This document shows positions 1 to 3,000 of a DNA stretch of 6,325 bases, piece after piece. The stretch lies in the IMG/VR virus record IMGVR_UViG_2531839233_000012; one strand, given 5' to 3'. This DNA is from a virus. Lineage: Duplodnaviria; Heunggongvirae; Uroviricota; Caudoviricetes. Position 1 is the stretch's first letter, and each line of letters begins with the position of its first letter. A program made the position numbers.

Positions 1-3000
1 AACCCTGCCGGAGCAGGGTCAGAATGTGAATTACAATGTTGGTTTAAACACAATGATGAAAACTGTAGCAGTCAGACCGCTATCCTGAACACCATGAAGC
101 CATCCTCATCATCCGGCATTCGCTCAAAGCCCAGTCGTTTTCCCAGCCGGATAAATCCCCGCCTTGCCGTATGGAACTCAGCCCAGCGTCCGCCAGCCAG
201 ATGGGTTAATGTCTTCACCTCCGGCAGGTAACGCTCAACGCTGTTACTCCCCGTACACACGCCCAGCAACACCAGAACATAAGGGATACCATCAGCACTG
301 AGCACAGAACGCAGCACCAAAAAGCCATCAGGTGCCTCAAAACAAAACGCCTGCTTTTTAAGGCAGGCGTCTTTAACTTCATTCATAAATTCAGGGTTGC
401 GGGAATTTCTCACAACACGCTGCATATACCAGAGAATTTTATCGTTCATTCTCTCACCTGAAACGGGTGCCATATCGGCTGAACCTCAGCAACCAGTTGA
501 CGGGGACTCTCGTCCCCGTCGCGGTTTTCCTACTGCTTACACTGTAAGAACGCCGCAAACTCCGCTCCCCACAAATTCAGCCGGAACTCACACAGTGAAC
601 CGTGCAACATCCAGATGGTGAAGATAACCGTCATGCAAATTGTGACGGTGATAAGCGATTTTTGCGACATAGCGCTTGACTCCTTTTACAGAGAGGCGCT
701 AACCTTCTACTTGCTTAAGGTACGAAGTGTTAGGGCCTCGGGTTAACGTTAAGTTGACTCGGGGCCTTTCCACATCAGGCCTTCAGGTTCACCCTCCAGC
801 CATCAGCCGAAAGGCACCCACGCATAATTTACGGTTTTTGCCCTGTACGGGCAATAAAAAACCCGCCATCACAGCGGGTAGTAAACGGTTACCGGATACA
901 GGTCAGAATTTCAGGCCAATGCCAGCAGTAACGCCACTCGTGCGCCAGTCGCCAGAGCCGGAACCTTCGTAAGCCACATCCAGTGTAACACTCTCATTCA
1001 GGTTAAACTGTGCACCTGCAGCCCACGCAAGGGAGGTTTTTTTCGTGCTGTTGCTTTCAGAAAATCCGCCACTACTGTTAATATTGTCCTTAATTTTCAG
1101 GTCAGCGCTAACTTTAGCAACGCCCATCCCTGCCATCGCATATAAACTCATGTACTGATTAACCCGCCATGAAGGCCCCGCTAACAGACTCCAGTAATTC
1201 GCCCTGATATCCGTTCTGGCAGAAGCTGCCGGATTCTTAATCTTCCTGGTATGATCGGCTGACTGCACATCAATAAATGTCTGTGAGTTAGTGAGAGAAC
1301 GCGTCCATGTAAAAGAGGTGATAACGCCAAAATCATCCGTTATCTCGTAGCGATACCTGATATTAATGCCCTGTGGATTTTTATCCTTGCCTTCATATCC
1401 ACTGACCCGACCATCTGTATATTCGCCCAATGAAGAAAAGTAGTTTCTGTTGACGAAATGACTGAAAGTCTCCCTGTTATGAGCAGTCGCATCCTTTACA
1501 AAATCCTTCAGTCCCGGAAACTGAAAGTGCGCATACCCCAGAGAAATTGTATGCTCTCCTTCTGCTGCATGTGCAGATAAATTTACACAGGCAATCCCGG
1601 AGATTGCACACACAACCAGTGTTGCTATACTCTTCATTTAAGATATCCTGTATTCAGATAACACGCTAAACTTTTTAATAATACATCTTTTTAGACATTT
1701 TAAATGAATATTAAAGACTCGCTTCAACTAATCATATACTGATGTATTAATAACCAGGACCTTATCTATATACGGCTTTCGAATATCCCATGTTGCACCA
1801 CCGGAATAATGCTCACAGGAATATATTTTATTTCCTGTAGCACCAGTGGATGTGGTATAAATCGGTCGATCATAAGGAGTTCTTTTCCAGTTATAATACC
1901 CGACCAGTGCAGGCATGATTGCGCATGGATATCCAAGGTCCTTTTCAAATTTGATATCAACAGGTATTAACTTCGCGTCAAGCAGCATCATTTCGCCATG
2001 ATAAATCATCTCACCGTCCGGGTTATACATGGCGATACCATACTCAGAAGGTGGAGTAACCATATTCGCGAAAGCATAAACCGTCGTAACACCAGGGTTC
2101 GTTCCCCTGACAATTACATGAAGCCTTAGTGCATGATATCCATCAATCTGTTCATGCGTGTACATGACATCGGCCTTCTTCTCTGTTCTGATAAAGAAAA
2201 AACAACTTTTGCCTGACGGGATTGATGTTTTAAAAAAAGACTTTTCAGTCGCCGGTATGGTGCCTTTGTTGATCAGACACTGCGGCGTAAAACCTGGACT
2301 TATCCATACGCTGCCATCCGGCTTCATAATGCTCAAACCGTACATAACACTTATCCCCAGAATGTATAAATATAAGATCCCATACCCTGCTCAAGATTCG
2401 ACCACGTCACCGTATTGTCATTAATGGTTATCTTCGGTACTTTCCGATCCGCAAATACATTATTCCAGGGAAATAAACAACATACAGCCTGCAATGATTT
2501 CCCGTCGGGTTTATTAGTGTACGTCTTTGAGCCAGACTCCGCTGTAAATCTGTCCAGGAAAAATACTGGAGTCAGCACGCCCGTAACATTAACGTTATTT
2601 CTGTTATAAATGGCAAAACCGTATTCCAATACTCACCTCCTGATCAGCGTAATCTGCCTATGCGAACAGCCAGTCGTCCATTCTGGTCATAAACCTCAAT
2701 TTTATCATTGCGGATCACCAGTCCTACATTCTGATTAGAGTAACGAATTGTCAGTTGCCCTTGTGACGTAACACTGAAAAGGCCTCCAATATTCAGGTTA
2801 CCCTGAGAATCAACCTGAAAGTTTCCGTTCTGAATAACGGCACTCCGGATAACTGGCGAAGTGATACTTACCCCGGCTTTTACCTCATCCGCCACAACCT
2901 TCCGCGACACCAGTGTTTCAATCACCGCGTCATAAATCATCGCTTTCGGGATCACTACCTTGCCACCTGATACCGCAAACGGATAGGCTGTGTTATCCGG

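Follow-up and report, generated by a model that had tools for sequence, protein, structure and literature searches.

The window analysed here, a stretch of 6,325 nucleotides from a Caudoviricetes virus (IMG/VR record IMGVR_UViG_2531839233_000012), is 100% identical to the lom/tail-fibre region of the Stx phage 933W/VT2-Sakai (Sp5). On its minus strand an ORF of 46 codons is flanked by lom and by an ORF of 133 aa, as the first-pass annotation had placed it. The sequence read-out agrees with that annotation in detail: the ATG lies at 670..668, the TAG stop codon at 532..530, and a Shine-Dalgarno (SD) sequence, AAGGAG, at 685..680, 9 nt before the start codon. The product in the ORF list, read from this ATG, is MSQKSLITVTICMTVIFTIWMLHGSLCEFRLNLWGAEFAAFLQCKQ (46 aa). 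The ORF and the regulatory elements predicted around it are collected in Table 1.

Table 1. Features at and around the 46-codon ORF, with strand and the details on which each assignment rests
Feature	Position	Strand	Basis or details
lom	1637..903	-	Pfam Ail_Lom 1.5e-32
Putative sigma-70 promoter of hok mRNA	827..855	-	-35 TTGCCC 855..850, 17-nt spacer, -10 TAAATT 832..827
Predicted full-length hok mRNA, 355 nt	465..819	-	+1 G819 to end of fbi-like element; Rfam, homology extent, fold
tac-like 5' element	803..819	-	GGGUGCC-UUU-CGGCUGA; MFE pairing with 482..465
Hypervariable leader patch, target of antisense 5' tail	713..734	-	22 variants among 56 copies
SD-sequestering hairpin	671..700	-	AGCGC-CUCU...GGAG-GCGCU; holds the hok SD; in full-length MFE fold
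hok-family toxin CDS, 46 codons + TAG	530..670	-	ORF list, Pfam, PHROG, homologues
Post-stop stem-loop	499..520	-	GACGGGGAC-GAGA-GUCCCCGUC; pairing 99.8%
fbi-like 3' element	465..482	-	UCAGCCG-AUAU-GGCACCC; complementary to 819..803
133-aa ORF	473..72	-	Other neighbour of the 46-codon ORF
Putative antisense promoter	676..705	+	-35 TTGACT 676..681, 18-nt spacer, -10 TAACCT 700..705
Predicted Sok-like antisense RNA, ~58 nt	713..771	+	Fold -27.7 kcal/mol, z = -4.7
Single-stranded 5' tail of antisense RNA	713..~731	+	
16-bp terminator hairpin of antisense RNA	732..768	+	Followed by a short U tract

Assignment of the peptide to the Hok/Gef family, proposed at first sight of the sequence, is borne out by Pfam, where HOK_GEF (PF01848) scores 33.2 bits against a gathering threshold of 22 (E 4e-08), with residues 8-44 of the peptide aligned to profile positions 6-42 of 42. 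The peptide also matches PHROG 251 over its full length (2.8e-24), and every one of its 56 database homologues is named Hok/Gef family. The likeness to Hok and HokA that had been noted extends to the family and stops short of either subfamily, since the scores against the NCBIfam models for the HokA equivalog (NF007290, 38.4 bits, cut-off 89) and the Hok subfamily (NF007279, 22.7 bits, cut-off 73) both fall below threshold; the peptide is thus no HokA orthologue. An N-terminal hydrophobic helix (residues ~5-22, where the 17-residue Kyte-Doolittle mean reaches 2.3) and the L-C-E motif are present, as had been read. L26-C27-E28 and C44 are invariant or near-invariant among copies; their counterparts in the Hok family logo are L30/C31/E32 and position 48. 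C27 and C44 are 17 residues apart, like the cysteines of the HokB disulfide. Peptide length is exactly 46 aa in 14 of the 18 distinct peptides encoded by 59 unique transcript copies, and among unique copies of the module constraint is strongest at the second codon position, with an entropy of 0.164 (first position 0.366, third 0.494). A short ORF that arose by chance between genes and drew a spurious, weak HMM match would suit the small size of the ORF and its modest Pfam E-value, but its probability is negligible given a score beyond the curated threshold, the PHROG match and a coding signature kept across hundreds of genomes, which together rule it out. Judged by these matches and by its conservation, the ORF is a real gene for a Hok/Gef-family membrane toxin. 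A clade-wide pseudogene was also considered and rejected: a +1 G frameshift occurs in one Stx2a phage record (L014), but an intact copy of this 92% class exists in RefSeq.

The description of this ORF as unannotated holds for the original records of 1999/2000 (AF125520, AP000422) and fails for RefSeq, in which PGAP has placed at the same coordinates a "Hok/Gef family protein" with an identical peptide (WP_000078907.1). The label of PHROG 251 is "MokW-like host killing", and several phage records carry this or the labels "host toxic membrane protein" and "small toxic polypeptide". The 46-codon ORF is therefore already known and is no missed gene. An identical peptide, 72_1589, has moreover been included in a recent survey of Hok toxins (Escalera-Maurer et al., preprint 2025/26, bioRxiv 10.1101/2025.08.07.668861, Table S2), where it was cloned behind an arabinose promoter (plasmid LRP157) as a member of cluster 72, a high-abundance Hok cluster. 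In that set, which consists of coding sequences overexpressed with a foreign SD, 42 of 45 constructs were toxic; the non-toxic ones were 19_179, 60_1482 and 69_1540 only, and the toxicity of 72_1589 is read by exclusion, as it is not among these three. The survey deals with the CDS only, explicitly leaving Mok, Sok and mRNA structure aside, and does not discuss the copy in 933W/Sp5. With a RefSeq name, phage-pipeline labels and a survey that includes a toxicity test, the gene call itself adds nothing. Our search of the literature found no work specific to the hok locus of the window, including transcript, 5'/3'-end or protein data.

933W/Sp5 has another hok system, hokW-mokW-sokW, which was characterised by Takada et al. 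(2021, PMC8621323) and lies at 59815-60089 of AP000422 (hokW at 59815-59970), about 13 kb from the window ORF. Since both reside in the same phage and the PHROG label reads "MokW-like", the window ORF might be taken for hokW itself. This identification can be given practically no credence: position and peptide differ (HokW has 51 aa, MKQQKAM...DYESEK, with 15/42 identities to the window peptide), the hokW-sokW primers and probes of Takada et al. have zero matches within the window, and HokW belongs to HokD-type 60% cluster 35 of the preprint (bioRxiv 10.1101/2025.08.07.668861), the window peptide to cluster 72. Primer mapping and the distant hokW annotation exclude it. The two loci share the phage, the type of system, TAACCT as the -10 box of the antisense promoter (putative in the window) and pairing of a 5' end GGGUGC... 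with a 3' end ...GCACCC. They differ in that hokW has an annotated mokW, whereas the window locus is without mok. The predicted antisense RNA of the window has the layout of annotated sokW, but their 5' tails are unrelated, and cross-regulation is therefore not expected.

Among other relatives, HokA of E. coli K-12 gives the best NCBIfam match to the window peptide (NF007290, E 9e-10). Common to both are an MxQK N-terminus, a W in the helix, the SLCE and AAFLxCK motifs and two cysteines that are hard-coded, so that TadA editing is not needed; HokA differs in its 60% cluster (93 versus 72) and in length (50 versus 46 aa). The hok/mok/Sok system of plasmid R1 (parB) is comparable at the RNA level, with a tac/fbi-type closure, an SD hairpin, a stable 3' stem-loop, an antisense RNA (predicted in the window) composed of a 5' tail and a terminator hairpin, and a GAGG box upstream of its CCUC complement. 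R1 Hok (52 aa) has 13/44 identities to the window peptide (46 aa), and the R1 system is plasmid-borne with a mandatory mok, whereas the window locus is phage- or chromosome-borne and has no mok ORF.

Both putative promoters of the window locus were read by hand and from conservation, and a consensus promoter scan of 380..960 reported neither. Upstream of the hok mRNA, ATTGCC and TAnATT are kept at >=90% in a set of 63 unique copies drawn from four genomic contexts. The match to Rfam RF01794 (hok leader / "sok" model) begins at 819, the predicted +1, with model positions 1-157 at 819..657; at 35.6 bits (E 2.3e-05) it misses the gathering score of 59. The leader is thus best described as divergent, significantly similar to the model yet below its threshold. 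Folding of the predicted mRNA gives an MFE of -153.7 kcal/mol (z = -6.3), with a 5'-3' helix that closes the full length. RNAalifold applied to 59 copies did not select this tac-fbi helix, which was then tested explicitly: its sub-helices are paired in 97.7% and 86.4% of cells, against 35-43% in slid controls. The helix is invariant among these copies, so that its support comes from conservation and energy and involves no covariation. Almost every copy has GGCACCC of the fbi-like element in the same place, and the element itself shares bases with the ATG annotated for the 133-aa ORF. In the 3'-truncated RNA the predicted partner of the tac-like element becomes GGAAAGGCCCC (770..760).

The hok-style structure model as a whole is paired at 92.9%, against 35-43% when slid, and has 12 compensatory pairs against 3-6. 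In the SD hairpin, helix 4 is paired in 100% with G-U changes, and helix 5 has three pairs changed on both sides. The post-stop stem-loop has compensatory changes at four pairs, two of which are changed on both sides in 25 and 32 sequences. It is not the hok terminator, because a U tract is missing on the minus strand. By analogy with the 3' stem-loop of R1 Tr-hok (PMC9841398), it is likely to be the protective 3' end of a processed, active mRNA.

On the opposite strand, the complement of the putative antisense -10 region, GGTTAGCGCC, is invariant in 59 copies. Its TAACCT, which the scanner missed because it matches TATAAT at 3/6 bases only, matches the -10 box that Takada et al. destroyed in sokW with primer YO-421 (PMC8621323). 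The top of the predicted antisense hairpin carries compensatory variants between copies. The leader patch opposite the antisense 5' tail has a pairwise identity of 0.685, the lowest of all segments, compared with 0.905 for the 5' leader.

The component that R1 control would lead one to look for, mok, has no conserved counterpart. In the window copy, both frames that overlap upstream of the hok ATG lack ATG, GTG and TTG, and an in-frame TAA lies six codons upstream; roughly a third of 63 unique copies have an open overlapping frame, and its starts are inconsistent. A candidate mok start, the AUG at 775 (AUG UGG AAA GGC CCC...), was rejected, as its frame stops after eight codons in the window, after one codon in another copy (L007), and is shifted by indels elsewhere. 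A conserved mok reading frame is, as far as these comparisons reach, absent from the module. In R1 translation of mok is mandatory for that of hok (PMC9841398). Because the conserved mok frame is absent, translational control would have to act on the hok SD itself. The predicted opening of the SD on 3' truncation increases from a mean of 0.10 to 0.19, rising in 46 of 56 copies and falling in the P2-type copies. Base-pair probabilities thus weakly favour a mok-independent switch that opens the SD, which is offered as a hypothesis and not as a conclusion.

Of 5426 complete E. coli genomes, 1750, or about a third, carry the ~375-bp module (839..465), which is found in at least four contexts, namely Stx podophages, P2-like prophages, lambdoid prophages and a chromosomal island. 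Homology between contexts runs over 839..465, which gives the bounds of the module, and this distribution indicates that it has spread horizontally. The Sok-like RNAs predicted for co-resident copies can carry different 5' tails, the ykgM-island copy in O157 being an example. Among unique copies the leader and the fbi-like element are more conserved than the hok CDS. Comparison of the copies points to strong purifying selection on both the peptide and the RNA.

Taken together, we consider it highly probable that 855..465 on the minus strand constitutes a complete hok/sok-type type I toxin-antitoxin module, the second in 933W/Sp5 and distinct from hokW-sokW. Sequence, folding and conservation together suggest that the mRNA begins near G819. 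The full-length form would be inert, locked by the 5'-3' helix (819..803 with 482..465) and with the hok SD buried in its hairpin. If the 3' end were trimmed as far as the stem-loop at 520..499, the 5' end would be free to refold as a tac-type hairpin. An antisense RNA of ~58 nt, initiated from TTGACT-18-TAACCT on the plus strand and extending from 713 to ~771, would pair with a leader segment lying 30-90 nt before the hok start, whereupon the mRNA would be marked for RNase III cleavage or the SD would stay closed. Once antisense synthesis ends, by loss of the element or induction of the prophage, the stable mRNA would be translated and Hok would depolarise the inner membrane. The most likely role of such a module would be that of prophage cargo (a moron), either for addiction or stabilisation, or for assisting lysis in the manner of hokW.

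The native locus could also be translationally silent without mok. On that account the CDS and the RNA elements persist as a relic that hitch-hikes on phage ends, and Hok is never made. Besides the lack of a start codon for mok in the window copy, the overlapping frame that is open in only some copies and the requirement for mok in R1, this account can draw on the weak predicted exposure of the SD upon truncation in many copies and on chromosomal hokA/B/C, which, according to work cited in the preprint (bioRxiv 10.1101/2025.08.07.668861), are unable to mediate post-segregational killing. We regard it as unlikely. Purifying selection shows in the fixed length of 46 aa, in the pattern of constraint over codon positions and in a leader that varies less than the CDS; both putative promoters are conserved, and a relic sits poorly with a module that has moved horizontally into four or more contexts and is found in roughly one E. 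coli genome in three. Between invariant flanks the predicted antisense target is hypervariable, a pattern to be expected only where antisense recognition matters.

Within the reading as a functional module, cluster 72 loci (46 aa) might represent a mok-independent variant of hok/Sok control, perhaps partly redundant with hokW in Sp5/933W, a suggestion that we make tentatively and rate below even chances. The former mok SD box GAGGC (738..734) would then serve purely as an anti-anti-SD that pairs with GCCUC (697..693) after 3' trimming and so frees the hok SD directly, and the Sok-like RNA would bind 30-90 nt ahead of the start codon, either shutting the SD again or provoking cleavage. A very common Hok subfamily without the mok that is essential in R1 offers a convenient natural test case for mok-free Hok gating.

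The presence of two different Hok toxins in 933W/Sp5 also bears on earlier phenotypes. In the only functional hok study in this phage, HokW was found to be membrane-localised and mitomycin C-induced, and to double phage release; hokW was deleted, and the window locus is not mentioned (Takada et al., 2021, PMC8621323). Because a second Hok toxin was left in the phage, the partial phenotypes may reflect redundancy. If the two are redundant, this could explain why deletion of hokW-sokW merely halved phage release, and the window locus could have a bearing on when lysis and Stx release occur.

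The minus-strand reading frame proposed in the first-pass annotation is present at 670..530 in both the window sequence and the ORF list (ATG 670..668, TAG 532..530), follows the Shine–Dalgarno (SD) sequence AAGGAG (685..680, 9 nt upstream of the ATG) and encodes MSQKSLITVTICMTVIFTIWMLHGSLCEFRLNLWGAEFAAFLQCKQ. Its flanks are those originally described, a 244-aa Ail/Lom protein (1637..903; Pfam Ail_Lom match, 1.5e-32) and a 133-aa ORF (473..72). Over 6267 bp the window matches the corresponding tail-fibre/lom DNA of the Stx-converting phages 933W, VT2-Sakai (Sp5) and relatives at 100% identity. 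No feature is annotated between lom and L0129/H0145 in the original records (AF125520, AP000422). RefSeq chromosomes, in contrast, annotate exactly this ORF (WP_000078907.1, "Hok/Gef family protein"), and in newer phage records it goes under the names "MokW-like host killing", "host toxic membrane protein" or "small toxic polypeptide"; the description 'unannotated' therefore holds only for the ORF track used at first pass and for the 1999/2000 records.

The Pfam HOK_GEF model scored 33.2 bits against the peptide (gathering score 22), and PHROG 251 ("MokW-like host killing", moron category) matched it over its full length (2.8e-24), whereas the NCBIfam HokA equivalog (38.4 bits, cut-off 89) and Hok subfamily (22.7 bits, cut-off 73) models fell far below threshold. 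By these profile matches the product belongs to the Hok family without being a HokA orthologue. Among 5.8 billion proteins searched, 56 relatives were retrieved from Escherichia, Shigella and Salmonella, every one named Hok/Gef and nearly all exactly 46 aa long. Residues M1, Q3, K4, M21, C27 and A39-F41-L42-Q43-C44-K45 are invariant among them, and CDS entropy is lowest at codon position 2 (0.164, against 0.366 and 0.494 at positions 1 and 3).

From a catalogue of 32,532 hok loci, Escalera-Maurer et al. (bioRxiv 10.1101/2025.08.07.668861) report an enrichment of hok genes in prophages and two copies in 3.5% of hok-encoding phages; by their own statement, the analysis did not extend to Mok, Sok or mRNA structure. 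Their Table S2 entry 72_1589 (plasmid LRP157, high-abundance cluster) has a peptide identical to that of the window, with only synonymous differences in the CDS. Since 42 of their 45 constructs were toxic and 72_1589 is absent from the three named as non-toxic (19_179, 60_1482, 69_1540), the toxicity test suggested at first pass has in effect been done, by CDS overexpression and at preprint level. The original observation is confirmed and its interpretation as a Hok-family toxin supported; the gene itself is an already known, annotated, catalogued and toxicity-tested (preprint) member of that family.

Sp5 also carries hokW-sokW, a toxin–antitoxin system of type I, which partly requires RNase III and Hfq, is induced by mitomycin C via RecA and doubles phage release (Takada et al., 2021, PMC8621323). 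Its toxin HokW has 51 aa, and the primers of that study encode MKQQKAM...DYESEK (PMC8621323). Identity of the two genes was rejected on position, peptide and primers: hokW/mokW/sokW is annotated in VT2-Sakai at 59815-60089, about 13 kb from the window locus; 15 of 42 aligned residues are identical between the peptides; and none of the published primers or probes was found in the window. HokW corresponds to a different entry of the preprint's Table S2, 35_712, and the discussion of Takada et al. makes no mention of a second hok gene (PMC8621323). Judged from sequence, the window locus is a second, more divergent hok locus of the same phage (933W/Sp5).

The module conserved across genomic contexts spans 839..465.

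Features of the hok module (window coordinates; promoters, start sites and pairings are predicted)
Feature	Sequence or description	Position	Strand
Putative hok mRNA promoter	TTGCCC-17-TAAATT; both hexamers at least 90% conserved	855..827	-
hok mRNA +1	predicted	about G819	-
Leader	Rfam RF01794 match, sense strand, full model length	819..657	-
tac-like 5' end	GGGUGCC-UUU-CGGCUGA; complementary to 482..465	819..803	-
fbi-like 3' end	UCAGCCG-AUAU-GGCACCC; complementary to 819..803	482..465	-
Target of antisense 5' tail		734..713	
SD hairpin	AGCGC-CUCU/GGAG-GCGCU; contains hok SD	700..671	-
Post-stop stem-loop	G+C-rich, 3' of stop codon; no U tract on minus strand	520..499	-
Putative antisense promoter	-35 TTGACT 676..681, 18-nt spacer, -10 TAACCT 700..705; start ~713	676..705	+

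The leader match to RF01794 (35.6 bits, E 2.3e-5) lies below the gathering score of 59. The model bears the name 'sok antitoxin', but its match is on the sense strand; what it describes is therefore the leader of hok mRNA, between +1 and the start codon of hok, and not the antisense RNA itself. The 355-nt transcript is predicted to fold at -153.7 kcal/mol (z = -6.3), closed by the tac-fbi helix. The first 60 nt of the predicted antisense RNA would form a single-stranded tail and then a hairpin of 16 bp with UUU after it (-27.7 kcal/mol, z = -4.7), an architecture like that of Sok and annotated sokW. The sokW promoter has the same -10 box, TAACCT; comparison of primer YO-421 with the native sequence shows it to be the box that Takada et al. 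changed in order to silence sokW. At 498..521, around the post-stop stem-loop, a T tract occurs on the plus strand only and the scanner called a plus-strand terminator; this element could halt transcription, antisense or convergent, that runs into the 3' end of hok. For the 133-aa ORF, which is L0129/H0145, the annotated ATG (473..471, minus strand) lies inside the fbi-like element, its PHROG 610 alignment begins only at residue 9, and homology between contexts ends at 465; in reality the gene probably begins at the second ATG (449..447, MNDKILWY...), with GGTGAGAG upstream.

Comparative support came from about 100 loci, giving 59 unique transcripts (alignment A2), and an explicit hok-style model of 43 pairs comprising tac-fbi helices, Sok-terminator/target hairpin, SD hairpin and post-stop hairpin. 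In this model 92.9% of cells are paired, against 35-43% with partners slid by 1-3 columns, and compensatory changes are seen at 12 pairs, where the slid controls have 3-6; on four of five measures the observed values were reached by none of 500 shuffles. Covariation is clearest in the post-stop hairpin (25 and 32 sequences with both sides changed). The tac-fbi helix is 97.7% paired and invariant in sequence, so conservation is its only support, and RNAalifold on A2 did not choose it.

In R1, mutations of the mok start codon abolish Hok synthesis (PMC9841398). In the window copy, neither overlapping frame contains ATG, GTG or TTG ahead of the hok ATG, and an in-frame TAA lies six codons upstream. 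Of 63 unique copies, about a third have an open overlapping frame, with start codons that vary between copies and a frame set by indels in the hypervariable patch; mok is thus no conserved feature of this subfamily. Annotated mokW (18816..19028 of the AP000422 segment analysed; AP000422 59815..60027) extends HokW in frame at its N-terminus (MLNTCRLASYVPKGKEKQA + HokW) and is not an overlapping ORF in another frame. The predicted fold of 3'-truncated hok RNA contains a tac-type 5' hairpin, GGGUGCCUUUC with GAAAGGCCCC, and a GAGGC/GCCUC helix in competition with the SD hairpin. On truncation, the predicted unpaired probability of SD plus AUG goes up in the window copy (0.11 to 0.42), and family-wide only from 0.10 to 0.19; it increases in 46 of 56 copies and falls in the P2-type ones. 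A direct, mok-independent switch for hok translation may be proposed from such modelling as a hypothesis only. As far as could be found, the second locus in 933W/Sp5, its RNA anatomy with the predicted Sok-like antisense RNA and the absence of mok throughout the subfamily are unpublished, and are modest additions to a known Hok gene.

The module occurs in 1750 of 5426 complete E. coli genomes, with up to nine copies per genome, and in 198 phage records. It occupies at least four contexts: Stx podophages, after lom; the end of P2-like prophages, after ogr (including phage P88 gp52); a lambdoid prophage, between gpJ and a tail-fibre gene; and a non-phage island adjoining a type B L31 gene. Mean pairwise identity is 0.96 in fbi, 0.905 in the 5' leader, 0.862 in the CDS and 0.685 in the target of the antisense tail, which has 22 variants among 56 copies. 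Diversification of the recognition patch on a conserved scaffold is what would be expected if antisense specificity matters among copies in one cell.

In the O157:H7 chromosomes NE92 and CFSAN004176 a diverged copy (78% DNA identity, peptide MPQKTIIVGMLCLT...) lies in the non-phage island, where its neighbours are the type B L31 gene and remnants of traT. Co-resident copies in O157 strains therefore differ from the 933W copy in antisense-target sequence. In Stx2a phage Stx2_481 (LC616045.1), an extra G in a GGGG run (~window 570..567) causes a frameshift, so that the product has 44 aa and a changed C-terminus. A clade-wide pseudogene was rejected, since the RefSeq copy in NZ_CP074872, which belongs to the same 92% class, encodes an intact toxin; the lesion is an isolated mutation or a sequencing error. 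The enterobacterial module also occurs, at 76-100% protein identity, on contigs labelled Xanthomonas pisi (857 bp), a Planococcaceae MAG and Vagococcus sp. WN89Y (226 kb); contamination or wrong labelling of the assemblies is the probable cause. Elsewhere in the window, at ~5685..5715 (+), a strong hairpin of terminator type, GGGGGAGCAUAUUGCUCCCC with UUUUUU after it, lies between two minus-strand tail genes; RsaOG matched it weakly (27.5 bits, E 0.4).
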